From: Escherichia phage fjerdesal
Sequence record: MN850605.1
Strand: one strand, 5' to 3'
DNA: 64,000 nucleotides
The notes beneath the pieces were generated by a model. It made no database searches. It had not been told where the DNA came from and saw only the letters and a program-made list of their open reading frames with translations. Both the position numbers and the translations under genes were made by a program. This document shows positions 1,766-26,744 of the stretch, in pieces (the stretch's first letter is position 1; each line of letters begins with the position of its first letter).

Positions 1766-2141
1766 TCATTTTATCCCTTCTAATAATGATATATTCATAA
1801 TGGGACGTATGGGCTAATTGCTGTGACCAATCCATAGTCATAAATACTTCATACTCATGACCATCAATCATAACAATATCAGACTCATTCCACTCTACAT
1901 CATCTGAAGTTCTAAGCTTATATGTGGTATACAGGATTCTTGTATCGGTAAGTCTAATACCTTCCGGTAAAGCAATCTGTGTACCGTTCTTTACAGAACC
2001 TTTGATATATGGCTGGATATTACCTTTACAGTTAACCTCTACAATATCTTGTGAAGCTACCCAATCACCATCATCATTATAATAACCATCTTCAGAGACT
2101 TTACGCTTTACTACAAAGCTGTGTCTGTTTAAGAGTCTCAT
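1740..2141 (-). CDS. hypothetical structural protein
   Basis: 133-aa ORF, 4-nt overlap with upstream gene. Confidence 0.55.
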   Translation of the reverse strand: MRLLNRHSFVVKRKVSEDGYYNDDGDWVASQDIVEVNCKGNIQPYIKGSVKNGTQIALPEGIRLTDTRILYTTYKLRTSDDVEWNESDIVMIDGHEYEVFMTMDWSQQLAHTSHYEYIIIRRDKMNAVRNSRT

Positions 2142-2620
2142 TTCTTAATACCCTTCTTAGTAGAAATTTTATAAGCAAGGTTATCCCTTAAGTCACCTGT
2201 CTCAACAAGAGGTGCGTTAAAGCCTTTTTTCTTGACTGTGGAAGGTGCGTTAGGAGGGAGGATAGCAGAATTACCAAAACCCCTTTTAATTGCCTTTTGA
2301 GCATTCTTTGCAAATGCTTCTAAGGTATTTGAAGGGTCTGTGTTGAGACTGCTAAGTTGCTTATATAGATTCTTCTTAGTCTGCTCTAACAAGGTCTGTT
2401 TGTTTAGCATCATAGTGATTTCAAACAACCTACGATATACTTTACCAGAAGCTGAAGGAACCCCAATAACTTCTTGTAAATACATTAAAGCAGGATAAGA
2501 AAAACCAGAGCTATGTTGACCTTGTTCTTGAAAATACCCAACTTGAGCATTAGCCGTTTGCAAGTTCTTCATAGCCCCGACTAATTTTGCTCTAGCGGGG
2601 TGAATAACCCTTTTAACCAT
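2138..2620 (-). CDS. hypothetical head-tail joining protein
   Basis: 160-aa ORF, overlapping start/stop coupling in structural operon. Confidence 0.55.
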   Translation of the reverse strand: MVKRVIHPARAKLVGAMKNLQTANAQVGYFQEQGQHSSGFSYPALMYLQEVIGVPSASGKVYRRLFEITMMLNKQTLLEQTKKNLYKQLSSLNTDPSNTLEAFAKNAQKAIKRGFGNSAILPPNAPSTVKKKGFNAPLVETGDLRDNLAYKISTKKGIKK

Positions 2621-3069
2621 TATTCATCTCGCTCGATAATAAATACGCCATTAACACGGTTGCAGTAATCTCTGCCTTCGTATCTGGCAGCATCACCATA
2701 TTCTGTGTATTTCTTGACAGAGCAAGGATTCTGACGACGCATGTCAATATCACACTGATTAATACCACCTGCATAGGGTAGTCCTGAAACAGAGCTTTTA
2801 ACAAGGTCGTCATAAACAGCTTTCAGAGACTTGAATCTGGAAGAGTTACGTAAATAAACACCACCAACCTTCTCATCTCCCATCTTGGCTACTTGAAAGA
2901 GTAAATATTTAAGAGCTTTGATGGCTGCTTTCTTTTCATCCTTTCCAGATTCTAGATAGAACCACTCTAGCACAGACTGCTCAATAAGAATTTCATCATT
3001 ATTAGTGTCTGTGCAGAGGATTCTTACTCTATCAAGAGGGTTATTGGCTGGGTCGCCTGTATAACACAT
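2620..3069 (-). CDS. hypothetical head completion protein
   Basis: 149-aa ORF immediately downstream of major capsid gene. Confidence 0.55.
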   Translation of the reverse strand: MCYTGDPANNPLDRVRILCTDTNNDEILIEQSVLEWFYLESGKDEKKAAIKALKYLLFQVAKMGDEKVGGVYLRNSSRFKSLKAVYDDLVKSSVSGLPYAGGINQCDIDMRRQNPCSVKKYTEYGDAARYEGRDYCNRVNGVFIIERDE

Positions 3070-6311: not shown

Positions 6312-6811
6312 TAATTAAACCTTACTTTTTGTTTAAGGACTGTTGAATGGTTACCAGATTCATCTACCACATTTACAATCATATCATATACTTTGCCTTT
6401 GACAAGTACTTTGTAATCATTTTGTGAAAAAATGTATTCAAGTCTGTTTGTTTCTTTATTAACTGTCATTGGAGATTGAAATGCAGTGTCGAGGGTAATG
6501 AAAGCGGCTTCAATGCTATTAACATTGATACGTTTATTCTCGCAGTTATATAACTTTACACCCAAAAGGCATGAACTGTCAAATGGAATTTTAACAATTT
6601 CACTACAATTTCCTGAAATAAACGGTTTTCCACTCATTGGTGCATCAAGTAACCTACAAATAGTGAAAACGTCAGAGGCTCCACCATCACTTACATAACC
6701 TGAAAGGCTAACCCTTGAGCCAGCCTCTACAGATAATTTGTCAGTGATAATAAGAACACCTCTATACGAATGCACTCGTGTAGCATTTGAAATAGAGATA
6801 ACTTCAGCCAT
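6311..6811 (-). CDS. hypothetical protein (head module)
   Basis: 166-aa ORF directly downstream of portal. Confidence 0.5.
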   Translation of the reverse strand: MAEVISISNATRVHSYRGVLIITDKLSVEAGSRVSLSGYVSDGGASDVFTICRLLDAPMSGKPFISGNCSEIVKIPFDSSCLLGVKLYNCENKRINVNSIEAAFITLDTAFQSPMTVNKETNRLEYIFSQNDYKVLVKGKVYDMIVNVVDESGNHSTVLKQKVRFN

Positions 6812-8286
6812 TATTTATTTGCCTTATTTGCTGTGCTTGGGTCTTTCGCTGAAGGTGTCTTTGCAGTACCTTCTCCAGCGGTCTTATAACCATCTCCTGA
6901 GCGGCTTTGGCTATTTGGAGAAAGCTTTTCAGATACTGGCTGAGACTCATCAGCAGGAGGAAGACCAATATGCTCTCTAAGCTTGTTAGATAGCTCTTTG
7001 TCAACTTCCAAAGCACCTACTGCAACAGTCTTCTGGATATAAGAACCAATTGCTTCAAGGTCTGGAGTTTCGATATCATCATATGTGATTTGCACATGTT
7101 CTTCATCATCCCACATATTAAGAGCATAAGTCTGAGCAACTAAATCGCGGTTAATTACGTTCTTAATTTGCTTCAGCAGAATATCTACTGACATTGCTAG
7201 TAAGCTTGTCTTAGAATCTGCAAGAGAGAATGAACCATATTTTGACTGACCCATAGCAAGAACATCTGACATAAACGCCATCATAATCTGCTTAGAATAT
7301 CTGTCAATAATAGAACCTGTGTCGTATGCTTTAGCACCCTGTCTAGAAACTAATGAGAACTCAAAAATATCCTCTTTAGTATCTGGGTCGATATATCTAG
7401 GCCAGATTAAACCTGCTCTATCATTAGCAATCATATCGTTAACAACAGTTTTGCAGTATTGTACGAAAGCTTTCTTTTCAGGTTCTGCATTTTCATCCAG
7501 ATAATCTGGTGGTAACCCAATTTTTGGCATACCTACCAAGTCTCTTGAAACGCCAACAGCTTCATACTCTTCAATCTGTACTTTATACTTCCACGGTACA
7601 TAAGCATTAAGTAATGGTGAACGACCTTCTGGGTTTCCATATTCATCATCATACTTAAACAGCATGAATTTAGCTCGTGGAAGTTTTCTTGTTAGTGGTC
7701 TTTCTCCAAGATTAATTGCTCCAGCAATATGTGAAACATTTCTCAGATTCTGTCTAACACCAGTAACTCTTCTAAAGTCTTCGTCAAAATACCACTTATC
7801 AAGTGTTGATTGGTTTCTGATTGGTAATTTAGCCCATCCAATTAGACCATCATCAAATTTTGACTGGTACTTTCCTTTTTTGCCCTGTCGCTTCTTATAA
7901 ACTTTCTCGTTAACACAGAACCCATAAGTGCAGAATGACATTACAGAGTTAATAAAATCTGCCCAATCATGCTCCATGTCATCCATTAAAGAATTAAAGA
8001 AGTCTGCTCTTTCAAGCATTTTAGGGTCTTGCTCTTTTCCCTTTGGAGGTACAAATCTCCAGTTGACTTTTCTGACAAACATCTTAATAATATTTACAGA
8101 TGCTGCTACAGCAGGGTCACGCATCATTAATTGGAAAGTTTTAATACTTTCAGGGAACCTTAGTGCCTGACGAGGTTCTTCATAGATTCTTCCATTCTTA
8201 ACCTTCAGACCCAAAGAACCTACTTCACCCATTCTAAATGGTGGTAAGCTTTCTTGTGTTTCTGTAATATCTGCCATTCTTCTCAC
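6811..8286 (-). CDS. portal protein
   Basis: 491-aa ORF immediately downstream of large terminase; size and position. Confidence 0.8.
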   Translation of the reverse strand: MRRMADITETQESLPPFRMGEVGSLGLKVKNGRIYEEPRQALRFPESIKTFQLMMRDPAVAASVNIIKMFVRKVNWRFVPPKGKEQDPKMLERADFFNSLMDDMEHDWADFINSVMSFCTYGFCVNEKVYKKRQGKKGKYQSKFDDGLIGWAKLPIRNQSTLDKWYFDEDFRRVTGVRQNLRNVSHIAGAINLGERPLTRKLPRAKFMLFKYDDEYGNPEGRSPLLNAYVPWKYKVQIEEYEAVGVSRDLVGMPKIGLPPDYLDENAEPEKKAFVQYCKTVVNDMIANDRAGLIWPRYIDPDTKEDIFEFSLVSRQGAKAYDTGSIIDRYSKQIMMAFMSDVLAMGQSKYGSFSLADSKTSLLAMSVDILLKQIKNVINRDLVAQTYALNMWDDEEHVQITYDDIETPDLEAIGSYIQKTVAVGALEVDKELSNKLREHIGLPPADESQPVSEKLSPNSQSRSGDGYKTAGEGTAKTPSAKDPSTANKANK

Positions 8287-10339: not shown

Positions 10340-10415
10340 TGGAGAATCCGAAGGGACTCGAACCCTTATAAACCTGTTTTGCAGACAGGCACATATCCAT
10401 TTCTGTCACGGATTC
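10340..10415 (-). tRNA. tRNA-Cys (anticodon GCA)
   Basis: Perfect 7-bp acceptor stem, T-arm AAGGG/TTCGAGT/CCCTT, anticodon loop CTGCAAA, U73, encoded CCA. Confidence 0.75.
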
Positions 10416-10419
10416 AAAT

Positions 10420-10512
10420 TGGAGGAAGATACCAGACTTGAACTGGTACACCGATTTCTCAGCTACTGGCAGTTTAGCAAACTGCTCCCTTACCTTTTAG
10501 GGTTAATCTTCC
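10420..10512 (-). tRNA. tRNA-Ser (anticodon GCT), type II
   Basis: Acceptor GGAAGAT/ATCTTCC, anticodon stem GCAGT/ACTGC loop TTGCTAA, long variable arm, T-arm ACCAG/TTCAAGT/CTGGT. Confidence 0.7.
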
Positions 10513-10513
10513 A

Positions 10514-11248
10514 TTATTTCTGTAATGCGCTCTTCATTTCTGGTGTTGCAATAGTGTCAATCACACCAGTTTTACAAGCATCGTCAAACCAGTCTGGTAA
10601 GATACCTGCTAAGAACCCATTGATATTCGTTTTAAGGTACTCTGCAATAAGGGCAGCTTCTTCTTCAATCATCTGCACAACTTCATCTGCATAAGCTGTA
10701 ATCTTTGAAATACCTTCATTAATCTTACTGACAGCTTGGTTAGCTAAATCAGAAACAGTATCAAGACCCTTATCAATAGCATCTTGTAAGTCACTTAACA
10801 CACCATTAACACTATCTAGTGTACTGTTCATCATGTCAATAGCTTTTTGACCATACTCTGTAGCAACACCCATGATACCACTGAATGGTTTACAACCAAC
10901 TTGTTCTCCTGCTGCACCCATAACATTGGAATACCCCTTTGCTACCTGCATACGTGATGAAAACTCATCAATAGATTTTTGACCGTAGTCTGTCAGAGTT
11001 TTAGTAGTTGCTGTAGTGCTTGTAAGGCTTGTTGTAAAGCTGTTTAGAAGGACTGTTGTAAGTCCAGCAGCAACAAGTTTCTCCTTCATTGTAGGGTCTG
11101 TTACAGAACTAATAGAGCTTACAAGTGATGTAGAAGCAGCTACGGTTCCACCGAGAACTGCTGCACCAGTAATAAGCGGGTTAGAGAACCCTTTACCAGT
11201 TTTTAAGAGATTAAAAATCTCCTTACCTTGTTCTGTCATCTCTTTCAT
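10514..11248 (-). CDS. hypothetical protein (Ser/Thr-rich)
   Basis: ORF 10514..11311 in track; start trimmed to ATG at 11248 because upstream part overlaps tRNA-Phe; AGGTG SD. Confidence 0.5.
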   Translation of the reverse strand: MKEMTEQGKEIFNLLKTGKGFSNPLITGAAVLGGTVAASTSLVSSISSVTDPTMKEKLVAAGLTTVLLNSFTTSLTSTTATTKTLTDYGQKSIDEFSSRMQVAKGYSNVMGAAGEQVGCKPFSGIMGVATEYGQKAIDMMNSTLDSVNGVLSDLQDAIDKGLDTVSDLANQAVSKINEGISKITAYADEVVQMIEEEAALIAEYLKTNINGFLAGILPDWFDDACKTGVIDTIATPEMKSALQK

Positions 11249-11266
11249 TAAGCACCTTTGAAATTG

Positions 11267-11343
11267 GTAGTCCAGTGGGATTTGAACCCTCTTCTCATGT
11301 TTTTCAGACACGCGCTTTAACCATATAAGCTACTTGGACTATA
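11267..11343 (-). tRNA. tRNA-Phe (anticodon GAA)
   Basis: T-loop TTCAAAT, anticodon stem CGTGT/ACATG loop CTGAAAA, D-stem GCTT/AAGC; 5' region slightly noncanonical. Confidence 0.6.
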
Positions 11344-11348
11344 AATTG

Positions 11349-11424
11349 GGGTGACCTACGGGATTTGAACCCGTATAGACCATGTTCACAGCATGGGTCA
11401 TTACCGTTTATGATAAGGCCACAT
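11349..11424 (-). tRNA. tRNA-His (anticodon GTG)
   Basis: Acceptor GTGGCCT/AGGTCAC, anticodon stem CCATG/CATGG loop CTGTGAA, C73, encoded CCA. Confidence 0.7.
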
Positions 11425-11455
11425 TTAAGGACTCTCGCAAGAATCCTTAGAAGTG

Positions 11456-11531
11456 GCAGCGGCATAAGGATTTGAACCTTAATAGGACAGCTTCAGAGGC
11501 TGCTGCATTGCCAGTTATGCTATACCGCTAA
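11456..11531 (-). tRNA. tRNA-Gln (anticodon CTG)
   Basis: D-stem GCAT/ATGC, anticodon stem GCAGC/GCTGT loop CTCTGAA, T-arm TAAGG/TTCAAAT/CCTTA, G73. Confidence 0.7.
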
Positions 11532-11536
11532 ATTTG

Positions 11537-11615
11537 GTACTCCATATCGGATTCGAACCGATACATAACACAGATTTTAAGTCTGGCCTCTCTGCCAATT
11601 GGAGTAATGGAGCAT
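11537..11615 (-). tRNA. tRNA with anticodon TAA (Leu-type anticodon, short variable arm)
   Basis: Acceptor GCTCCAT/ATGGAGT, T-arm ATCGG/TTCGAAT/CCGAT, anticodon loop CTTAAAA, A73; only 76 nt plus CCA. Confidence 0.6.
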
Positions 11616-11617
11616 TG

Positions 11618-11693
11618 GCGGGGGATGTTGGAATTGAACCAACTTCTTCGATTTCAAAGACCGAGGTTTTAACCTTGTAAACTAATCCCCTTT
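11618..11693 (-). tRNA. tRNA-Gln (anticodon TTG)
   Basis: T-arm GTTGG/TTCAATT/CCAAC, anticodon stem TCGGT/ATCGA loop CTTTGAA, G73, A1-C72 mismatch. Confidence 0.6.
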
Positions 11694-11699
11694 AAATCT

Positions 11700-12257
11700 T
11701 TACTTTCTCAGTGGATGAATAAAGAATGCCAACATAACTCTTTCCCTTGAGAATGCTCTTTCTTCTGGGACAACACTTTTTAGTTTCCATCCAATATAAA
11801 TTCTCCAGTAAAATTGTTTACCAAAGATTTTAATTGATGGGATAAAAGCGAATAATCCCCAAGCATTACTGTTCCACATTAGGAGATAACCTGTCTGATT
11901 ATCTTCGGGGTCAGAACTTACGTTGATATTACCTTTCCACTTAGTAACATCTCTTACATCTCTTCCTAATACATGGTAAGAGAAGTTATAAGCTTTGTTT
12001 CTCCAGAGCCATCCGACTCTTTGCATGTAGACACCTAGTTTACCAATCCATCTAATATTAGCCCATCTTTTAACGTGACCTTCATCACCATCAATTGGGT
12101 TGTCATATGTCTCCATCCATCTGAACCCGAAAGGTAAGTGTCCTTTCTTCTCACTGTAGAATGGAACTACAAAAGGTGCTAAGATAACTGCTAAGATTGC
12201 TGCAAATGGCTCTAACAAAGCTAAGAAAATCCATGAAGCATACTTCAAATATCTCAT
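11700..12257 (-). CDS. hypothetical membrane protein embedded in tRNA cluster
   Basis: 185-aa ORF with hydrophobic N-terminal segments. Confidence 0.55.
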   Translation of the reverse strand: MRYLKYASWIFLALLEPFAAILAVILAPFVVPFYSEKKGHLPFGFRWMETYDNPIDGDEGHVKRWANIRWIGKLGVYMQRVGWLWRNKAYNFSYHVLGRDVRDVTKWKGNINVSSDPEDNQTGYLLMWNSNAWGLFAFIPSIKIFGKQFYWRIYIGWKLKSVVPEERAFSRERVMLAFFIHPLRK

Positions 12258-12276
12258 CTAAATAGCCTCTTTAAAT

Positions 12277-12352
12277 TGGCGCAGGATAAGGGATTCGAAC
12301 CCCTATTAACAGCTTCGTAGACTGTTGCTCTATCCATTTGAACTAATCCTGC
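12277..12352 (-). tRNA. tRNA-Arg (anticodon ACG)
   Basis: Perfect acceptor GCAGGAT/ATCCTGC, anticodon stem ACAGT/GCTGT loop CTACGAA, encoded CCA. Confidence 0.75.
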
Positions 12353-12357
12353 AAAAT

Positions 12358-12435
12358 TGGTGTTCCAAGACGGATTCGAACCGTCACTAATACAAGGTTT
12401 GAGCTTGCATCCTCTGCCAATTGGGATACTGGAAC
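12358..12435 (-). tRNA. tRNA with anticodon CAA (Leu-type anticodon, short variable arm)
   Basis: Acceptor GTTCCAG/TTGGAAC, T-arm GACGG/TTCGAAT/CCGTC, anticodon stem GCAAG/CTTGT loop CTCAAAC, A73. Confidence 0.6.
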
Positions 12436-12436
12436 A

Positions 12437-12511
12437 TGGTACTCACTAAAGGACTTGAACCTTTTTCTTCATCTTGTAAGGGTGATGTTTTACCATATAA
12501 ACTAAGCGAGT
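12437..12511 (-). tRNA. tRNA-Val (anticodon TAC)
   Basis: D-stem GTTT/AAAC, T-arm AAAGG/TTCAAGT/CCTTT, anticodon loop CTTACAA, A73. Confidence 0.7.
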
Positions 12512-12518
12512 ATGAAAG

Positions 12519-12607
12519 AGGTCTGAAGTTGTGCCGCTAACTCAACTTCGTGGAATTTGTTACGGTCTTCAGTTGACTCAAAGCGGTCTTTCACTTGACC
12601 TCTGAAT
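12519..12607 (-). ncRNA. structured non-tRNA spacer element (GAGGTC...GACCTC closing stem, internal GAAGACCG motifs)
   Basis: 89-bp gap in tRNA array; terminal inverted repeat and internal hairpin, no canonical T-loop. Confidence 0.3.
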
Positions 12608-12683
12608 TGGTGCTCCCACAAGGACTCGAACCCTGATAAGTTGCTTACAAGGCAACCATAATAACCAATTATACGATAGGAGC
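12608..12683 (-). tRNA. tRNA-Thr (anticodon TGT)
   Basis: Anticodon stem GTTGC/GCAAC loop CTTGTAA, T-arm CAGGG/TTCGAGT/CCTTG, encoded CCA. Confidence 0.75.
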
Positions 12684-12690
12684 ATTAATT

Positions 12691-12765
12691 TGGAGCATCC
12701 AGAGGGAATCGAACCCTCAACCTCAGTTTGGAAGACTGTAATTTTCCCGTTTAAACTATGGATGC
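12691..12765 (-). tRNA. tRNA-Gly (anticodon TCC)
   Basis: Acceptor GCATCCA/TGGATGC, T-arm GAGGG/TTCGATT/CCCTC, loop CTTCCAA, U73. Confidence 0.75.
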
Positions 12766-12771
12766 ACTAAT

Positions 12772-12846
12772 TGGTGGAGTCACTGAGAATTGAACTCAGT
12801 TCCCAAGTTTGCAAAACTCGAATTTTAACCATATAAACTATGACCC
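12772..12846 (-). tRNA. tRNA-Ala (anticodon TGC)
   Basis: Acceptor with G3-U70 wobble (Ala identity), anticodon loop TTTGCAA, T-arm CTGAG/TTCAATT/CTCAG. Confidence 0.75.
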
Positions 12847-12854
12847 CCATTGTT

Positions 12855-12930
12855 TGGTACAGGTGGAGGGAATTGAACCCATCGTCTTACTGATTAAGAG
12901 TCAGCCGCATAACCATTTTGCTACACCTGC
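12855..12930 (-). tRNA. tRNA-Lys (anticodon CTT)
   Basis: Acceptor GCAGGTG/CACCTGT, anticodon stem GCTGA/TCAGT loop CTCTTAA, T-loop TTCAATT. Confidence 0.65.
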
Positions 12931-12937
12931 ATTAATT

Positions 12938-13014
12938 TGGTACACCTAGAGAGATTCGAACTCACACTGAGCAGATTCTAAGTCTGCTGCCTCTACCAGT
13001 TGGGCTATAGGTGC
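12938..13014 (-). tRNA. tRNA with anticodon TAG (Leu-type anticodon, short variable arm)
   Basis: Canonical D-arm GCC/AACTGGTAGA/GGC, perfect anticodon stem GCAGA/TCTGC loop CTTAGAA, T-loop TTCGAAT, A73. Confidence 0.65.
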
Positions 13015-13020
13015 ATTAAA

Positions 13021-13101
13021 TCTTTTTAGAGAACTTCTAAGAACCTGAGCAACAAGGTTCCACAACAAGCGACTAATAACCTTAGAAGCCCTCTAAAAAG
13101 A
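13021..13101. repeat. long inverted repeat (about 20-bp arms, about 40-nt loop) in tRNA cluster
   Basis: tctttttagagaacttctaag ... cttagaagccctctaaaaaga are reverse complements. Confidence 0.5.
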
Positions 13102-13268
13102 CCTAAATAGGTCTTTGCATAGTCTTGTTTAATCCGGTGACTAGAACCTTTGGAGAGCTTGATATTATCTCTTCTCCGTGACACCTACTAGGTGCTTTGA
13201 CAGTGTACGACAATACACGAGGGATAAACCGACAATGCGAACAAGCATGGACGGAGTAAATCTTATTA

Positions 13269-13358
13269 GGCGGTAAGTAAAGGAGTCGAACCCTCACCGT
13301 ATCTCTACAGTGGCAACAGTTTTCAAGACTGTTTGGCTGCCATTAGCCGCTACCTACC
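13269..13358 (-). tRNA. tRNA-Ser (anticodon TGA), type II
   Basis: Acceptor GGTAGGT/ACTTACC, anticodon stem ACAGT/ACTGT loop CTTGAAA, long variable arm, G73. Confidence 0.7.
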
Positions 13359-13371
13359 CCTAATAAGACTT

Positions 13372-13454
13372 TGGCATGGGACGGAGGAGTTGAACCCCTT
13401 TGAAACGGTTTTGGAGGCCGTTGCTCATGCCTTAGAGTCTTAACATCGTCCCAT
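13372..13454 (-). tRNA. tRNA-like gene, possibly tRNA-Trp (anticodon CCA) with atypical D-arm
   Basis: Perfect acceptor ATGGGAC/GTCCCAT, G73, encoded CCA, T-loop TTCAACT; anticodon stem AACGG/CCGTT enclosing 9-nt loop CCTCCAAAA. Confidence 0.45.
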
Positions 13455-13596
13455 ATTATAATTCGAAGCTTACCCTGTTATCTCAACACTGTCAAGCTTC
13501 TTCTCAGATTATTTACATGTTCTGGAAAACATGAGATACAGACCACCTCCCTACAGGAAGACCCGCTAAGGCCGTCTAAGTAATCTGCTAACTATT

Positions 13597-13673
13597 TGGT
13601 ACACCCTACAGGATTCGAACCTGTAACTAACGATTTAGAAGACCGTTGCTCTATCCAATTGAACTAAGGGTGC
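13597..13673 (-). tRNA. tRNA-Arg (anticodon TCT)
   Basis: D-arm GTTC/AATTGGATA/GAGC, anticodon stem ACGGT/ATCGT loop CTTCTAA, T-arm ACAGG/TTCGAAT/CCTGT. Confidence 0.75.
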
Positions 13674-13875
13674 ATTATCTTTAAAGACTCTCTTAGAAAG
13701 CCCTTAAAGATGCCCACCTTATTAATCATACCGTGGGCGAGTACGCCAAATTCTTTGATGAGGGATTGGAAGACCTCACTGGTGTTTAGCCTATCAAGCT
13801 ACTGCCAGAAAAACATTGTCGTTTGCATTTATTTTAAATTTGCAAAATAGACGCTACGCAACGAAAACTAAGGTT

Positions 13876-13904
13876 ACTATAAAGTAGTCACATCTCAATG
13901 TCAA
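13876..13904 (-). promoter_or_regulatory. sigma70-type promoter inside tRNA cluster (TTGACA-N17-TATAGT)
   Basis: Minus-strand TTGACATTGAGATGTGACTACTTTATAGT; reads toward tRNA-Arg(TCT) sub-cluster. Confidence 0.55.
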
Positions 13905-13919
13905 CAACTTTATTGAAAT

Positions 13920-13995
13920 TGGTACTGGTAGGTGGAATCGAACCACCGATGTTCCCTTATCAGGGGAGTGTTATAACCTTCTTAACTATACCAGC
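13920..13995 (-). tRNA. tRNA-Ile (anticodon GAT)
   Basis: D-arm GTTA/AGAAGGTTA/TAAC, T-arm GGTGG/TTCGATT/CCACC, loop CTGATAA. Confidence 0.7.
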
Positions 13996-13996
13996 T

Positions 13997-14073
13997 TGGA
14001 GGTTCAGATGGGAATCGAACCCACATTCATAGGGCTTATGAGACCCTTGCATTACCTTATCTGCGACTGAACC
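13997..14073 (-). tRNA. tRNA-Met (anticodon CAT)
   Basis: Acceptor GGTTCAG/CTGAACC, anticodon stem AGGGT/GCCCT loop CTCATAA. Confidence 0.7.
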
Positions 14074-14077
14074 ATAT

Positions 14078-14153
14078 TGGTAGAAGTGGAGGGATTCGAA
14101 CCCATCGCCTGTCAGATTAAAAGTCTGCCGCATCACCATTCTGCTACACTTCC
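14078..14153 (-). tRNA. tRNA-Lys (anticodon TTT)
   Basis: Acceptor GGAAGTG/CACTTCT, loop CTTTTAA, T-loop TTCGAAT. Confidence 0.65.
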
Positions 14154-14163
14154 ATTAAATTAT

Positions 14164-14297
14164 CTTTGTAGATAAGCTACCCAGACTTGCTTAAGGTCTG
14201 TAGCGATGTGCCTTTTTTGGGTTTAAATCTAGAATTTACCCATTCACCCTTTGTGGTCGCATACTCACAAGTAAGCTTAATAACTTATCTACAAAGG
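14164..14297. repeat. 13-bp perfect inverted repeat (ctttgtagataag / cttatctacaaag) separated by about 108 bp
   Basis: Exact reverse-complement arms at 14164-14176 and 14285-14297. Confidence 0.5.
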
Positions 14298-14299
14298 TA

Positions 14300-14440
14300 A
14301 TTACCAGACCGTTGTTTATCATCTTAAGTGCTACCATTACACCAACTCGACATCTGCCGAGTGAAGGAATCGAACCTTCGCCTTTTCTTTACCGGAGAAA
14401 TAGATTGTTTAAGTTTTGCTGTAAACGGCCTTCTGTAAAT
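14300..14440 (-). ncRNA. candidate Y-RNA-like element containing a circularly permuted tRNA-like module
   Basis: Minus strand order: T-arm GAAGG/TTCGATT/CCTTC (14363-14379), closed acceptor-like hairpin ACTCGGC-AGAT-GTCGAGT (14345-14362), D-arm-like GTG/TAATGGTAG/CAC (14328-14343); flanked by AGGCCGTT / AACGGTCT complementary segments; no anticodon arm. Confidence 0.35.
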
Positions 14441-14586
14441 TTGTTGAGCCAGACCAAGTTTTAAATTTTCAAAATTAAATTGGCTTGAAAATATCATACG
14501 TTCTTGCTGAATTTGGTCTTCTGCTCCTTTAAAGAATACTCGTAAGAACTCTTTAAGGGAGGGGCTAAATAGCCCTCTCAAAATTG

Positions 14587-14661
14587 GCGGCTACGATGAG
14601 ACTTGAACTCACATCATCTCCCGTGACAGGGGAGTATTTTCTCCAGTTAAACTACATAGCC
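14587..14661 (-). tRNA. tRNA-Asp (anticodon GTC)
   Basis: Acceptor GGCTATG/CGTAGCC, perfect anticodon stem CTCCC/GGGAG loop CTGTCAC, G73, encoded CCA. Confidence 0.75.
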
Positions 14662-14666
14662 TTTAT

Positions 14667-14754
14667 TGGTGTGCCGTGTAGGAGTCGAACCTACCGAGTC
14701 TCAATGACAAGGGATTTACAGTCCCCACCGCTACCATCTACGGGATAACGACAC
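14667..14754 (-). tRNA. tRNA-Tyr (anticodon GTA), type II
   Basis: T-arm GTAGG/TTCGACT/CCTAC, anticodon loop CTGTAAA, long variable arm. Confidence 0.7.
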
Positions 14755-14762
14755 ATTTAATT

Positions 14763-14839
14763 TGGCGGTTAGTCAGGGATTCGAACCCTGTGCCATTCGC
14801 TTAACAGGCGACCGCACATACCTTATGTGCTTCCTAACC
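14763..14839 (-). tRNA. tRNA-Asn (anticodon GTT)
   Basis: T-arm CAGGG/TTCGAAT/CCCTG, anticodon loop CTGTTAA, G73. Confidence 0.65.
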
Positions 14840-14917
14840 TTAATACATTGCCAGACCGTGTTTTTTCTTTTATCCGCAAAAAAGTATTTTGTTGCTGAAT
14901 ACGGTCTTCTGCAAAAT

Positions 14918-14994
14918 TGGAGGCGGGTGCAGGAGTCGAACCTGCCGATACCATGCTAATGAGACATGTGAGACGCCCTTTCTCTATACCCGCA
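14918..14994 (-). tRNA. tRNA with anticodon CAT (Met or lysidine-type Ile2)
   Basis: T-arm GCAGG/TTCGACT/CCTGC, anticodon stem CATGT/GCATG loop CTCATTA. Confidence 0.6.
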
Positions 14995-15085
14995 ATTCTT
15001 AATGACCAGACCAAATCTCTTCTTTGTCCGATTTACCTTCAGATGAATAAGATTAAGTTTGCTGTAATTGGTCTTCTGTCAAAAC

Positions 15086-15163
15086 TGGCGTTCCAGAAGG
15101 GATTTGAACCCTCAGATATCCACTTTGAAAGAGTGGTGACTATACCATTTTGTCTACTGGAAC
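15086..15163 (-). tRNA. tRNA-Glu (anticodon TTC)
   Basis: Acceptor GTTCCAG/CTGGAAC, perfect anticodon stem CCACT/AGTGG loop CTTTCAA, G73. Confidence 0.75.
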
Positions 15164-15170
15164 ATTAATT

Positions 15171-15247
15171 TGGTCTCTGTTGGAGGACTTGAACCTCCGG
15201 CCTTACCGCCCCAAACGGAACGCTCTACCAATCTGAGCTAAACAGAG
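15171..15247 (-). tRNA. tRNA-Pro (anticodon TGG)
   Basis: Perfect acceptor CTCTGTT/AACAGAG, D-arm GCTC/AGATTGGTA/GAGC, loop TTTGGGG, T-arm GGAGG/TTCAAGT/CCTCC. Confidence 0.75.
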
Positions 15248-15365
15248 ATAAACTTTTCAAACTCTATGTAACCACTTTAACATTATTTTTTAGTGGTTGT
15301 CAAGAACTTTTTTAAAATATTTTTCAGTATCTTAGAAAAGCTCTCATTTCGCTTCTATGTAGAAC

Positions 15366-15394
15366 ATATTAAAGGGTATTAAACACATTGTCAA
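15366..15394 (-). promoter_or_regulatory. sigma70-type promoter embedded in hairpin (TTGACA-N17-TAATAT), heading the tRNA cluster
   Basis: Minus strand AGGGTATTGACAATGTGTTTAATACCCTTTAATAT; hairpin arms AGGGTATT/AATACCCT flank the -35. Confidence 0.5.
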
Positions 15395-15412: not shown

Positions 15413-16828
15413 TTACCAGATATAACGGTCAATCATTACTGCTTTGAGCATTACACTGATTGGGTCAAACTTCTCACCACCAAGCAGAGCTTTTAAAGTG
15501 GCTGGAGAGAACCCTGATACCATTGCTACACCGTTATCCTTAACAGATACTTCGCAAGTACCATTACGGTTTGCTAAGTACCAGAATACCAGTTGTGGCA
15601 TCTCATATCCAGCTTTTTTGTACTTACTCTGAATTGCTTCAAAGTTTGTACGACCGTTAGCTCCATCAACCTGATTGAACTCCATATCGGAGAAGATGAT
15701 AAGCTTACTTGGCATATCTTTCTGAGTCAAGTTGTTTCTTTTACCTGTTTCAAGAATGCGGTCAAAAGCTGCTTGTAAGTTAGTTGAGCCATATTCAACG
15801 TGTCGCATCACCTGACGATGACGGTTTCGTAAATCACCACTCAGTTCGATGAAGTGAGGGTTTGTTGAATAAACCATTAACTCATTCTTAAAGCAACCTG
15901 TATTGCGTTCTGCTACATACAAGGCAAGTGATACACCAATATCCAGAGCAGTAATGGAGCCAAAATTCACCCAAGACATTGAACTTGATACATCAGACAT
16001 ACACAAGATGTTTTCACCTTCTGCCATCCAGTTTGGTAGTGCTTTCCACTGCTCATTAGCAACATCTGCATTACCATACTTGACAGATTTAATCACATCG
16101 TATGGGTAAACAGCACCAGCGTTAATCTTAGTCTCACCTTTTGATAAGGACTCGATGTAAGCTTTGTAACGCTCTCCATCTTTACGGTTAAACAGTTTTT
16201 GGTAACGTGCAGCAGCAAGTGAAGGAATCTTACTGTAGTCAATCTTACCAAACTCATTAGCAGAGATTTTTTGCTCAACTGTATCAGATAGTGCAGACAA
16301 CAGTGTGCGGTACTCTTTCTCACTCAAGTTGGCAAACTTGCAGAAACGTTTTACAAACTGCTTATGACGTGGTTTGACTCGTGGTAACCACTTAGCCGCC
16401 AAACCTGCTGTTGCAGGGTCTAGTAATGCTGCTTCTAAATGTTTGAAGGCATCTGTCTCGAAACGAGTACCTACGAAGATTTTGAAGTCATCAAAACGAC
16501 CAAGTTCTGCAATCTTATCCATAATGCGAAGAACCTGCGTAGACTCTAAAACTTTGTCTTCAATTGCTTGAAGCAAAACAGTTCTGAAGGCTTTACGCTC
16601 ACCCATACCTTCTCGTACATCTCGCATATGAAGCAAAATACGAACTGCAACATCAACATCCTCACGCAAAGCTTTGTAGAACAGGTCTGGTAAGATTTCT
16701 ACGTTGCTACGGCTTGAACCAGCAGCTTTGTAAAAGTCTACAAGAGCAGACATTGATGAAGTATGGTTTACAGCACCATTTTCAGTTCGACCTGCATGAA
16801 GGTGCGCATGTTTAAATAATTCGCTCAT
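15413..16828 (-). CDS. vWA-domain protein, possibly Ro60/TROVE-like (Rsr-like)
   Basis: 471 aa; MIDAS motif DVSSS (CMSDVSSSMSW) and downstream beta-strand LIIFSDMEF typical of vWA; N-terminal ~280 aa helical region with loose resemblance to Ro60 motifs (LVDFYKAAGSS, YPYDVIKSVKYG); no adjacent AAA+ partner. Confidence 0.6.
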   Translation of the reverse strand: MSELFKHAHLHAGRTENGAVNHTSSMSALVDFYKAAGSSRSNVEILPDLFYKALREDVDVAVRILLHMRDVREGMGERKAFRTVLLQAIEDKVLESTQVLRIMDKIAELGRFDDFKIFVGTRFETDAFKHLEAALLDPATAGLAAKWLPRVKPRHKQFVKRFCKFANLSEKEYRTLLSALSDTVEQKISANEFGKIDYSKIPSLAAARYQKLFNRKDGERYKAYIESLSKGETKINAGAVYPYDVIKSVKYGNADVANEQWKALPNWMAEGENILCMSDVSSSMSWVNFGSITALDIGVSLALYVAERNTGCFKNELMVYSTNPHFIELSGDLRNRHRQVMRHVEYGSTNLQAAFDRILETGKRNNLTQKDMPSKLIIFSDMEFNQVDGANGRTNFEAIQSKYKKAGYEMPQLVFWYLANRNGTCEVSVKDNGVAMVSGFSPATLKALLGGEKFDPISVMLKAVMIDRYIW

Positions 16829-25186: not shown

Positions 25187-26744
25187 TTTTTATAAAATTT
25201 TATCGGTTGTCCCAACCTCTGGGTCACCATCATATGTGAATAAAATATCTATCCTTCTTAACAACCTTCTTAATCTTACTCTCTATATAGTTATATAGTA
25301 CTATATAGTATCTTAGTAACTATCTAGTGGTCTTAATAGCCCTCTGTATAGCCCTTCTAAATAGCCATCTAAACACTCTTCTAACAAGCCTTCTAAACAA
25401 CCTATACAATCATCTTAACCATCTCTCTATATCCTCTTAGAAGCTCCTATACACCTCTTAATCTCTAGGTTAGCTATGTTACTCTCTATAGGTGTTCACT
25501 AGGTACTACTAAGCCTCTATATAGACTGTTTTAACAAACTTAACAGGAATATCTTCACAGACCTTATCTCACAAGGTCTAACACGGTACTAACAAGGTAT
25601 CTTATAAGCCTGTTATTACCTGTATTTTTAAAAGGCTGTATAGGTAATTATTCAGAATCTTAAAATTTTTATAAAATAGGGCTATCAAGTCATTTTTTAG
25701 GGTCTTTGAAGGAACTGAAAAATATCTGATTAGGATGTATATCTGCTTGGTAGCCCTTAACAGCCCCTTAACACCCCCTTTGCAAAATTTTAAAATATCC
25801 TTAACAATCTCTTAACAGTTCTCACATCTTCTTAACAACCCTTCAAAGGTCTTAACAGATTCTTAACAGAACTAACAAGGCTGTAACAGTTTTCTAACAA
25901 GTGCTGAATAGGCTTTACAGAATCTTAACAGATGACTAACAAGAGCTAACAAGTTAATTTTAAAGAGTTATTTTGTTAAGATAATTAACAAGTTCCTAAC
26001 AAGTGTTTAATCTTTTTAACAAGCTATTAACATGGTCACTATCTCTTGGTCTATAGTTCCCTTTCCCTCTTAGTGATTCTTTAAACATACCTCTTAAAAG
26101 CTCTCTATAGCTCTTTATAAGCTCTTTTAAGTCTCTTCCTAGTAGTTACACCCCAACTATACAGAAAGCTTTTTATAGGGCTTTACAGGAGCTTTTAAGG
26201 CTATGTCAAAGGCTCTTACAAGGCTTTTACATGGTCTTAACAGAGATTTAACAAGGGGCTAACAAGTCTCTAACAAGTGCCTTAAAAGCATAACTATGTA
26301 GGGATTGTTAAGAAATTGTTAAGAAAATGTTAAGGGGGCTAGCATTTACGTAACTTTTAAGCTACTTTATATCCCCTATAACATACTTTTAAGACACTAA
26401 CAAGCCCTTTTTAGATATTCACAAGATAGCTAACGAGATGATAAAGCTTACACCCTTATAAGATTCTTTTAAGGCTGTAGGAAGCTTTATAAAGAGCTTT
26501 TAAGGGTGAGTTAATGCAATCCCTTAAGTTAGGTTGATAAGGCTGTTATAGAGCTTTATAGAGCGTTTAAACGGTTGCCCTTCCCTTTCGGGTTATGGGC
26601 TTTTATTTAAGTTGATTTGATAAGAGATTATAGAGTAGACTATAGAGTTATTGCTTTTAAGGTCTGGTAAGATTCTATCGAATCAGTAGGGTAGATTCTG
26701 GAAAGGAAAGGAAAGGGATTGTATAGAGGTTATTACATAGACGT
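25187..26744. repeat. 1.6-kb ORF-free motif-dense region (CTTAACAR / CTAACAAG array; GCTTTATAAAGAGCTTTTAAGG family)
   Basis: No ORF of 60 aa or more on any strand; many short direct repeats; lies between convergent plus- and minus-strand gene blocks. Confidence 0.6.

Follow-up and report, generated by a model that had tools for sequence, protein, structure and literature searches.

What are the structured spacers that interrupt the tRNA array of Escherichia phage fjerdesal? We examined a stretch of 64,000 nucleotides (nt) from this phage (sequence record MN850605.1; hereafter the window), in which ARAGORN finds 26 tRNA genes, every one on the minus strand. A preliminary description of the same DNA had singled out intervals in the array that do not fold as tRNAs but carry strong secondary-structure signals and share GAAGACC and GGTCTGG motifs, and had proposed that they might be processing signals or small stable RNAs co-transcribed with the tRNAs. 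Every structure listed there is present. Judging from sequence, four of these spacers, termed here E1–E4, are probably phage-encoded analogues of Y RNAs, and their putative partner is a Ro60-like protein encoded beside the array (Table 1). Animals, some bacteria and a few phages are known to have Ro60/Y RNA particles, the biology of which is barely explored in phages.

The window belongs to Felixounavirus (99.4% identity to Escherichia coli O157 typing phage 1). The region is matched by 344 phage records, Felixounavirus being in the majority, and the order and spacing of the array are kept across 33 related genomes. Since all the tRNAs lie on the minus strand, the spacers have to be read as minus-strand RNA, a point missed in the preliminary description. 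In GenBank relatives the spacers carry either no annotation or tiny open reading frames (ORFs) that are inconsistent between records; we rejected these small ORFs, whose strand and position differ from one record to another.

Table 1. Location of the structured elements, the array and the adjacent gene in the window, with the evidence for each
Feature	Description	Position	Strand	Evidence
E1	candidate short Y-like RNA, between tRNA-Glu and tRNA-Met	15003-15081	minus	motif match, fold, stem covariation
E2	candidate short Y-like RNA, between tRNA-Met and tRNA-Asn	14848-14914	minus	motif match, fold, covariation
E3	candidate short Y-like RNA	14446-14526	minus	motif match, fold, covariation
E4	candidate long Y-like RNA	14301-14438	minus	fold, covariation in 15 variants
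H1	long hairpin (~26-bp stem), directly 5' of tRNA-Leu(UAG)	13016-13106	minus	folding energy, predicted pairs
H2	~140-nt RNA closed by a ~22-bp stem, directly 5' of tRNA-Lys(UUU)	14158-14298	minus	folding energy, RNAalifold
S1	88-nt stem-loop between tRNA-Thr and tRNA-Val, closed by GAGGUC/GACCUC	12516-12603	minus	folding energy
Ro60-like protein gene	471 amino acids, DUF2828 + DUF7788	15413-16828	minus	Pfam, AF2 model, PDB fold matches
tRNA array	26 genes, with E1–E4 and other structured spacers embedded	10340-15247	minus	ARAGORN

Four Spacers Share a Closing Stem and an Invariant Motif

Both shared motifs are enriched (16 GAAGACC seen against 6.0 expected, 13 GGTCTGG against 4.1), and neither count was reached by any shuffle. 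The sequence CAGAAGRCCNNNTWCAGCAA matches four times on the minus strand (14416-14435, 14504-14523, 14892-14911 and 15059-15078), with 0.51 matches expected by chance; three copies of a CCAGACC...GGTCTTCTG hairpin had been counted previously, the actual number being four. As RNA, the repeat reads 5'-CAGAAGACC...GGUCUGG-3'. A sigma-70 promoter reading of the repeat was discarded: TTGACA or TTTACA overlaps CAGAAGACC in two copies, with no consistent -10 element after it. In a consensus scan, promoter and terminator sites were no commoner than in shuffled sequence, and none fell on the E stems on the minus strand.

E1–E4 are built on a common plan. An outer helix of 4 base pairs (bp), whose sequence varies by copy while pairing is always kept, is followed by an internal loop, with AGA in its 5' strand and G in its 3' strand, and by a helix of 7–8 bp, AGACCNN/NNGGUCU; immediately 3' of the 5' strand of this helix stands UWCAGCAA, invariant in all four. 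We refer to this stem and motif as the module. E1 has the outer helix UGAC/GUCA, the AGA/G internal loop, the inner helix AGACCAA/UUGGUCU, the motif UUACAGCAA and a variable loop. The corresponding parts of E2 are UUGC/GCAA (UUAC/GUAA in relatives), AGACCGU/ACGGUCU and AUUCAGCAA, and those of E3 are GAGC/GCUC, AGACCAA/UUGGUCU and, again, AUUCAGCAA, together with an internal hairpin UUUUCAAG...UUUGAAAA. The elements start 6–7 nt past the 3' end of a tRNA and occupy tRNA-sized slots.

Covariance analysis in related genomes, which the preliminary description had proposed as a check, bears out the pairing of the E stems. Among 33 distinct variants, drawn from 35 related sequences (33 IMG/VR and GenBank loci, the window and one Mooglevirus), 99.7% of the pair positions of the closing stem are standard, and 5 of the 11 pairs show changes on both sides. 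When the partners were slid by 1–3 columns as a control, pairing fell to 21–44%. The loops of E1 and E2 are swapped wholesale for unrelated sequence in some relatives, with stem and motif fixed; relatives carry E1 with two unrelated loop types on identical stems. The G-U pairs in the closing stems and in the helices of E4 fit RNA pairing on the minus strand.

The alternative E1 loop, UUUUCGCGCAUAGAAAAC, occurs in some Felixounavirus and Mooglevirus relatives (loci L010, L041 and L049) and resembles the loop AUUUCAUGCAUAGAAAAU of the second module in Klebsiella phage FBKp34 (L069 5612-5672), a likeness that suggests a loop type conserved across subfamilies.

E4 Contains a Circularly Permuted tRNA-like Body

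The fourth copy, E4, had been overlooked together with the permuted tRNA inside it. Its closing stem is like those of E1–E3 (UUAC/GUAA, then AGGCCGUU/AACGGUCU, with the motif UUACAGCAA). The interior begins with an anticodon-like arm, UUUCU-CCGGUAA-AGAAA (5-bp stem, 7-nt loop), and after four nucleotides there follow a canonical T arm, GAAGG-UUCGAUU-CCUUC, a 7-bp acceptor with a tetraloop at its end, ACUCGGC-AGAU-GUCGAGU, a U and a G where tRNAs have residues 8 and 9, and a D arm, GUGU-AAUGGUA-GCAC. As read from the sequence, the T loop UUCGAUU and the D loop AAUGGUA retain the residues of the tRNA elbow.

Across 15 variants, one of them from a Klebsiella phage, 96.3% of the pairs in the six helices of E4 are formed and 11 of 33 are compensatory. 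The closed acceptor alone, with compensatory changes at 4 of its 7 pairs, occurs as three unrelated sequences (ACUCGGC/GUCGAGU, ACACG/CGUGU and ACCCUUC/GAAGGGU). ARAGORN calls no tRNA in any spacer, E4 included, and the match of E4 to the Rfam tRNA model is partial (22 bits, threshold 29).

Circularly permuted tRNA genes, in which the 3' half precedes the 5' half, are known from the red alga Cyanidioschyzon merolae and other organisms, where they give rise to functional tRNAs via a circular intermediate. E4 likewise has the T arm and the 3' strand of the acceptor before the 5' strand of the acceptor and the D arm. Unlike in those genes, its anticodon-like loop varies freely among close relatives (CCGGUAA, CGGUAA, CUGGUAA, CUAUGAA, CUUAUAA), which makes a decoding role unlikely; we therefore disfavour E4 as a functional permuted tRNA gene.

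Could the elements simply be decaying tRNA genes and recombination scars in a fast-changing array? The tRNA arms of E4, the tRNA size of the spacers, a degenerate Trp-like tRNA at 13378-13452, the T-loop fusion of E4 with tRNA-Lys in one relative (L027) and the homing endonuclease genes that come and go in the array would all be in keeping with decay. On the other hand, compensatory changes maintain every helix of E4 and the closing stems of E1–E4, no tRNA features are found in E1–E3, and the permuted layout recurs beside the same gene in unrelated phages; we consider decay very improbable.

In the fusion just mentioned, from an IMG/VR Felixounavirus, E4 breaks off at its T loop, where tRNA-Lys(UUU) takes over with its own T loop and 3' end, and the remainder of E4, H2 and most of the tRNA are deleted. 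This looks like recombination between T-loop sequences.

The Adjacent Gene Encodes a Protein with a Predicted Ro60 Fold

A gene that had also been missed, and that provides a likely partner for the E elements, lies on the strand of the tRNA/E array and directly upstream of it. It ends 331 nt from E1, and E4 ends about 1.1 kb downstream, so that all four elements are found within the roughly 4 kb of a Ro60 orthologue, and on the strand, that are expected of Y RNAs.

[quoted passage not shown] An AlphaFold2 (AF2) model derived from these homologues (predicted local distance difference test score, pLDDT, 86.7) gave 13 best PDB matches that are all Ro60/Rsr structures, from Xenopus, human, Deinococcus (Rsr) and Thermus phage phiLo (9l5y and 9kop), with 499–572 aligned columns, template modelling (TM) scores of 0.38–0.67 and 11–16% identity. 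The next matches are isolated vWA domains. The protein thus models as a full-length Ro60 fold.

Relatives of the gene are annotated as 'RNA-binding protein' or, in cluster L mycobacteriophages, as 'Ro-like RNA binding protein', and the family comprises more than 2,500 homologues, 709 phage records and at least 591 IMG/VR loci. This very large, sequence-divergent family with a Ro60 fold would thereby gain candidate RNA partners, whose recognition motif is unlike the canonical one. The orthologue in phage Bas63, gp130, was described in the PhageMaP preprint as structurally Ro60-like, as countering the Ppl defence and as lying upstream of tRNAs. In a multi-omics study of Listeria phage CKA15, Rsr was the best HHpred match of the homologous protein, which was detected in virions, and abundant unannotated RNAs were reported upstream of its gene, with the authors speculating about Y RNAs. 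For such phages Y RNAs have been raised in two papers, as speculation only, and a literature search for Felixounavirus transcriptomes returned nothing useful.

Several phages carry RNA repair genes in the vicinity of the Ro-like gene (L073, List-36, 1960-3000 and 6810-8021; L080 2256-3515; L071, from 9071 onward). These are for an RtcB-type ligase in Listeria phages, an RNA ligase directly upstream in Serratia phage BF and RNA ligase 2 in Aeromonas phage 4_4572. List-36 also has two strong sigma-A-like promoters upstream of the gene, driving unannotated regions of 300–600 nt that are probably the abundant RNAs reported for CKA15.

The Module Accompanies the Gene across Phages

For the search in other phages we used an explicit descriptor, with strand and shuffle controls; MAFFT could not register the 3' strands of the short hairpin class because loop lengths vary. 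The descriptor requires WCAGCAA and, ending 0–3 nt before it, the 5' strand of a helix that has at least 7 bp; the 3' strand comes 12–125 nt downstream, with a G after it, and the whole is on the same strand as a DUF2828 gene and next to it. All of E1–E4 satisfy it, and there is one other match in the 128 kb of the two strands of the window.

Homologous loci were taken from 12 further lineages, of phages from Proteobacteria, Firmicutes, Actinobacteria, Campylobacterota and Fusobacteria; they give 17 same-strand matches in the 24 kb flanking the gene, versus 4 in 202 kb elsewhere (Poisson P ~6e-21). In Klebsiella phage FBKp34, three modules are clear and a fourth is possible in the 480-nt gap that separates the gene from a tRNA array, and one of them has a T arm, a closed acceptor and a D arm. 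Modules on the gene strand also flank the gene in Aeromonas, Mycobacterium (LeBron), Listeria, Campylobacter, Cronobacter, Enterococcus, Staphylococcus, Bacillus and Fusobacterium phages. At gathering thresholds, Rfam found only tRNA in the homologous loci of 10 other phages.

A protein-alignment search of IMG/VR returned 591 relatives, from which we took an independent set of 75 non-Felixounavirus loci (39–45% identity), not inspected beforehand. Their flanks gave 55 matches on the gene strand versus 1 on the opposite strand (binomial P ~8e-16), with 47 loci positive. Thirty matches lie 0–500 nt past the stop codon and 13 lie 0–750 nt before the start. Hairpins of about 59 nt make up most of the elements, and their consensus is (U)AAAGGNNNNN-UUACAGCAAA ... 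A-rich ... NNNNNCCU-G. Among 20 long elements, five contain a T-loop-like motif; T arm, closed acceptor and D arm follow each other in that order in four (L089, L095, L113 and one in L127). The association of motif and gene is therefore strong, strand-specific and spread across phyla. Pectobacterium phage Arno162, a member of the same subfamily (Ounavirinae), keeps the upstream DUF5681 gene and a similar, syntenic tRNA array; no Ro-like gene is found across its 91.7-kb genome, and no module in its tRNA array.

These distributions bear on two further explanations. One is that the spacers are processing or stability hairpins for tRNA precursors (RNase III, RNase E or RNase P signals), unrelated to the Ro-like protein. 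Their location between tRNAs would suit this, as would the double-stranded stems of 22–26 bp that H1 and H2 place directly 5' of a tRNA, and for H1, H2 and S1 the processing signals of the preliminary description are possible. We hold it improbable for E1–E4, because it leaves unexplained both an invariant WCAGCAA that is shared with phages whose hosts are Gram-positive, actinobacterial or campylobacterial, in each case next to one gene family and on the gene strand, and the absence of modules from the array of Arno162, a phage without the gene. The other part of the earlier proposal, small stable RNAs co-transcribed with the tRNAs, is favoured for the repeated hairpin spacers by their covarying stems, their tRNA-sized slots and a motif shared with the surroundings of a Ro60-like gene family. 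That the elements act as DNA instead (protein-binding inverted repeats, endonuclease targets or miniature mobile elements) is scarcely credible: several inverted-repeat copies do exist, but the G-U pairs of the stems would be A-C mismatches on the other strand, matches in the independent set keep almost entirely to the gene strand, and in the window the copies are confined to the tRNA array, apart from the one chance-like match.

Some arrangements in other phages deserve mention on their own. In one stretch of Bacillus phage FADO (L078 1100-3900) the GenBank annotation shows no tRNAs; Rfam finds about 16 there, upstream of the DUF2828 gene, and five WCAGCAA modules are interspersed among them, a layout like that of the window. 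A module class of 96–133 nt recurs in uncultured phages (L088 2276, L091 2737, L095 149, L096 1265 and L119 2734), with a conserved inner segment, GAACCUUUCUGGAGGGGAAAGCAAAAACUCGCCAAAA, within the WCAGCAA-closed stem. Oversized tRNAs of 111–131 nt occur near DUF2828 genes in Klebsiella, Aeromonas, Cronobacter and uncultured phages (L069 6003-6116; L071 1494-1613; L075 5895-6018, which is the same tRNA as L113 4895-5018, and 6025-6137; variants at L112 2217-2332 and L128 7184-7305). They carry an insert of 28–49 nt in the interval between D arm and anticodon arm, a closed hairpin followed by UUACAGCA, AUUCAGCA, UUACAGCG or UUACCGCAA, that is, the module of E1–E4 attached to an otherwise complete tRNA.

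The main alternative to free small RNAs places the modules within longer transcripts, where they would serve the Ro-like protein in cis as binding or regulatory sites, and might either protect or chaperone tRNA precursors or let the protein regulate its own mRNA. In many lineages a module does lie 30–750 nt before the start codon of the gene, and its presence inside otherwise complete tRNAs of other phages implies that it can work within a larger RNA. The modules of the window, however, stand downstream of the gene and are set apart from it and from each other by tRNAs, which are normally cut out; there are 2–5 copies per genome, and the 5' and 3' ends of each pair with one another, as in Y RNAs. 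We regard the cis-acting role as unlikely.

Comparison with Known Ro60 and Y RNA Systems

The bacterial and mycobacteriophage YrlA RNAs, partners of Ro60/Rsr, are encoded on the strand of the Ro60 gene and no more than 4 kb from it; they have a short 5' motif and a V stem-loop, after which come, in turn, T arm, closed acceptor-like stem-loop and D arm (Chen et al. 2014, PMC4201824). The elements of the window resemble them in distance and strand relative to a gene for a Ro60 fold, and in having paired 5' and 3' ends that form a stem with a short conserved motif (PMC4201824). The tRNA mimicry of YrlA, with the order V, T, closed acceptor (AS), D and the RNA ends paired, is seen in E4 alone; as at YrlA loci, there are several Y-like RNAs, one tRNA-like and the others shorter, E1–E3 resembling the YrlB type. 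Unlike YrlA, E4 has a complete anticodon-like arm, and its putative protein-binding stem does not stand in for the anticodon stem but exits between D and anticodon arms. In the window, moreover, real tRNA genes are interleaved with the RNAs.

Thermus phage phiLo offers a further precedent, in that a phage protein with the Ro60 fold has adjacent small RNAs, Yrl1 and Yrl2, which bind it (Nucleic Acids Research, NAR, 2025, PMC12135203). The phiLo RNAs differ in having been identified by the CGAA motif and in lying upstream of the gene, and no tRNA array or permuted tRNA was described with them (PMC12135203). Both that work and that of Chen et al. deal with canonical Ro60 and CGAA-type RNAs (PMC12135203, PMC4201824). 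We found no description of the WCAGCAA module in the literature, the coverage of which was incomplete, and earlier priority is possible.

Several observations weigh against regarding E1–E4 as Y RNA analogues. The likeness of the protein to Ro60 is in fold only: Pfam gives DUF2828/DUF7788 and no TROVE domain is recognizable in the sequence, and neither phmmer nor a 35-sequence profile found any match among PDB chains. The RNAs carry UWCAGCAA at the junction of stem and loop, not the GNCGAAN0-1G (CGAA) motif, the place of which is taken in the closing stems by CAGAAGRCC...UWCAGCAA; a GGCGAAG in E4 is T-stem sequence and is not conserved (GGAGAAG in relatives). Rfam 15 returned no family but tRNA, apart from chance matches, at E values up to 10 on element sequence and up to 1 on the region, unlike what is found for YrlA. 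The folding energies of E1–E4 are unremarkable compared with shuffled sequence (z = -1.1 to -2.3), the support for them coming from covariation, and the stem covariation itself is largely between paralogues and a few deep lineages, so that independent events are modest in number. The descriptor was shaped on part of the first set of loci, which is hence not independent, whereas the set of 75 was untouched; 28 of these 75, as well as Serratia phage BF and Vibrio phage phi-ST2, have no clear module. Finally, coordinates are available for one highly transcribed region of CKA15 (26,236-26,727), and the module hairpins (25,214-25,612) lie outside it.

By sequence E1–E4 do not qualify as YrlA RNAs, yet they share the architecture and genomic logic of YrlA; the best place for them is as a variant within the Ro60/Y RNA kind.

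Proposed Origin and Role of the RNAs

The elements would be transcribed as part of the tRNA array and freed by maturation of the flanking tRNAs: RNase P would cut at the 5' end of the tRNA that follows, and the tRNA that precedes would be trimmed at its 3' end. The ends of each element then pair to give the closing stem, in which, as covariation demonstrates, the outer helix, the purine internal loop AGA/G and the helix of 7–8 bp follow one another. This stem and the invariant UWCAGCAA presumably form the binding site for the Ro-like ring, as the association of gene and motif and the analogy to Ro60 and Y RNA suggest. More speculatively, the loops of E1–E3 and the tRNA-shaped body of E4 might recruit or mimic other factors, such as host exonucleases, tRNA-binding enzymes or tRNA-targeting defence nucleases.

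Stable non-tRNA RNAs freed by the tRNA processing machinery are known from the tRNA cluster of phage T4, as species 1 and 2 RNAs; T4 is not known to encode a Ro-like partner for them. E1–E4 are alike in their setting, as putative non-tRNA RNAs within a tRNA cluster.

We would go further only tentatively, since a wider role is possible but doubtful: DUF2828 proteins and the WCAGCAA stem module could constitute a widespread, unrecognised ribonucleoprotein system of phages, in which the module is a portable handle that docks tRNAs or their mimics on a Ro-like ring, whereby tRNAs that host defence nucleases attack would be shielded, decoyed or repaired. Such a handle may be attached to plain hairpins, to permuted tRNAs (E4) or, as an insert between D and anticodon arms, to complete tRNAs, and the RNA ligase genes beside the locus in several phages would fit this purpose. 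The likely evolutionary series leads from a tRNA, through a tRNA with the module, to a permuted tRNA mimic.

The reading of the elements as Y RNA analogues offers a possible reason for the non-tRNA spacers of phage tRNA arrays. Such elements are unannotated in many phages that are candidates for therapy, including Felixounavirus, P100/A511-like Listeria phages and staphylococcal and enterococcal myophages. Our analysis supplies RNA coordinates, a motif that can be mutated and a descriptor for genome annotation, for a family whose Bas63 member counters a defence system.

Other Structured Spacers

H1, H2 and S1 are conserved, and could be either processing sites or further small RNAs. The inverted repeats of H1 and H2 had been described with arms of about 20 bp (13021-13101) and 13 bp (14164-14297), respectively; both are present, with longer arms. 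Those of H2 (14158-14179/14281-14302) measure 22 nt and are 91% complementary. The interval 14154-14303 folds far better than shuffled sequence (z = -5.8), and in the RNAalifold prediction there are 30 pairs, of which 6 show compensatory change between two sequence types. Inside H2 there is a small hairpin, CAGACC-UUAAGCAAG-UCUGG, whose loop is also found upstream of tRNA-Lys in Arno162, which has no Ro-like gene; the inner hairpin is consequently independent of that gene.

H1 has arms of 26 nt (13016-13041/13081-13106) that are 85% complementary, and z = -5.6 for the interval 13015-13115. A small hairpin, AAGACC-UAUUUA-GGUCUU, with a U run (13098-13115) precedes and overlaps it. Among 26 predicted pairs, one is compensatory and many show G-C/G-U or A-U/G-U changes, broken pairs being almost nil, and H1 may be a site for a double-strand-specific RNase. 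It is dispensable, given that an HNH endonuclease gene takes its place in three relatives (L044, L046 and L062): there the spacer between tRNA-Ser(UGA) and tRNA-Leu(UAG), equivalent to 13015-13268 of the window, is 720–723 nt long and ends with the 3' end of the HNH ORF (...CPNCHSQF...). An HNH endonuclease is likewise annotated within the array of phage heid.

The element closed by GAGGTC/GACCTC, first placed at 12519-12607, is S1 (z = -3.3 for 12512-12607). The loop of S1, CUGAAGACCGUAAC, is similar to the E elements' 5' strand. We rejected S1 as a fifth member, as it lacks WCAGCAA and the corresponding stretch varies without constraint. The element is nearly invariant in 18 distinct relatives and hence uninformative for covariation.

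Minor Features of the Array

The degenerate tRNA-like sequence at 13378-13452 (minus strand) ends in GCCA and has an acceptor-like stem of 8 bp, a T-arm-like hairpin and an anticodon-like stem with a 9-nt loop containing CCA (Trp-like). ARAGORN makes no call there and the Rfam tRNA-Sec model gives only 23 bits; two relatives (L021 and L037) have a called tRNA-Trp(CCA) in the equivalent part of the array. The leader and trailer of tRNA-Ser(UGA) are complementary over 13 nt (13258-13270/13359-13371, 92%), which would lengthen the acceptor stem of the precursor.

A near-consensus sigma-70-like promoter lies inside the array (13876-13904, minus strand; TTGACA-17-TATAGT, 11 of 12 positions). Two more near-consensus promoters of this type are found between the Ro-like gene and tRNA-Pro (15274-15394, minus strand), one of them overlapped by a hairpin directly after the stop codon of the Ro-like gene.

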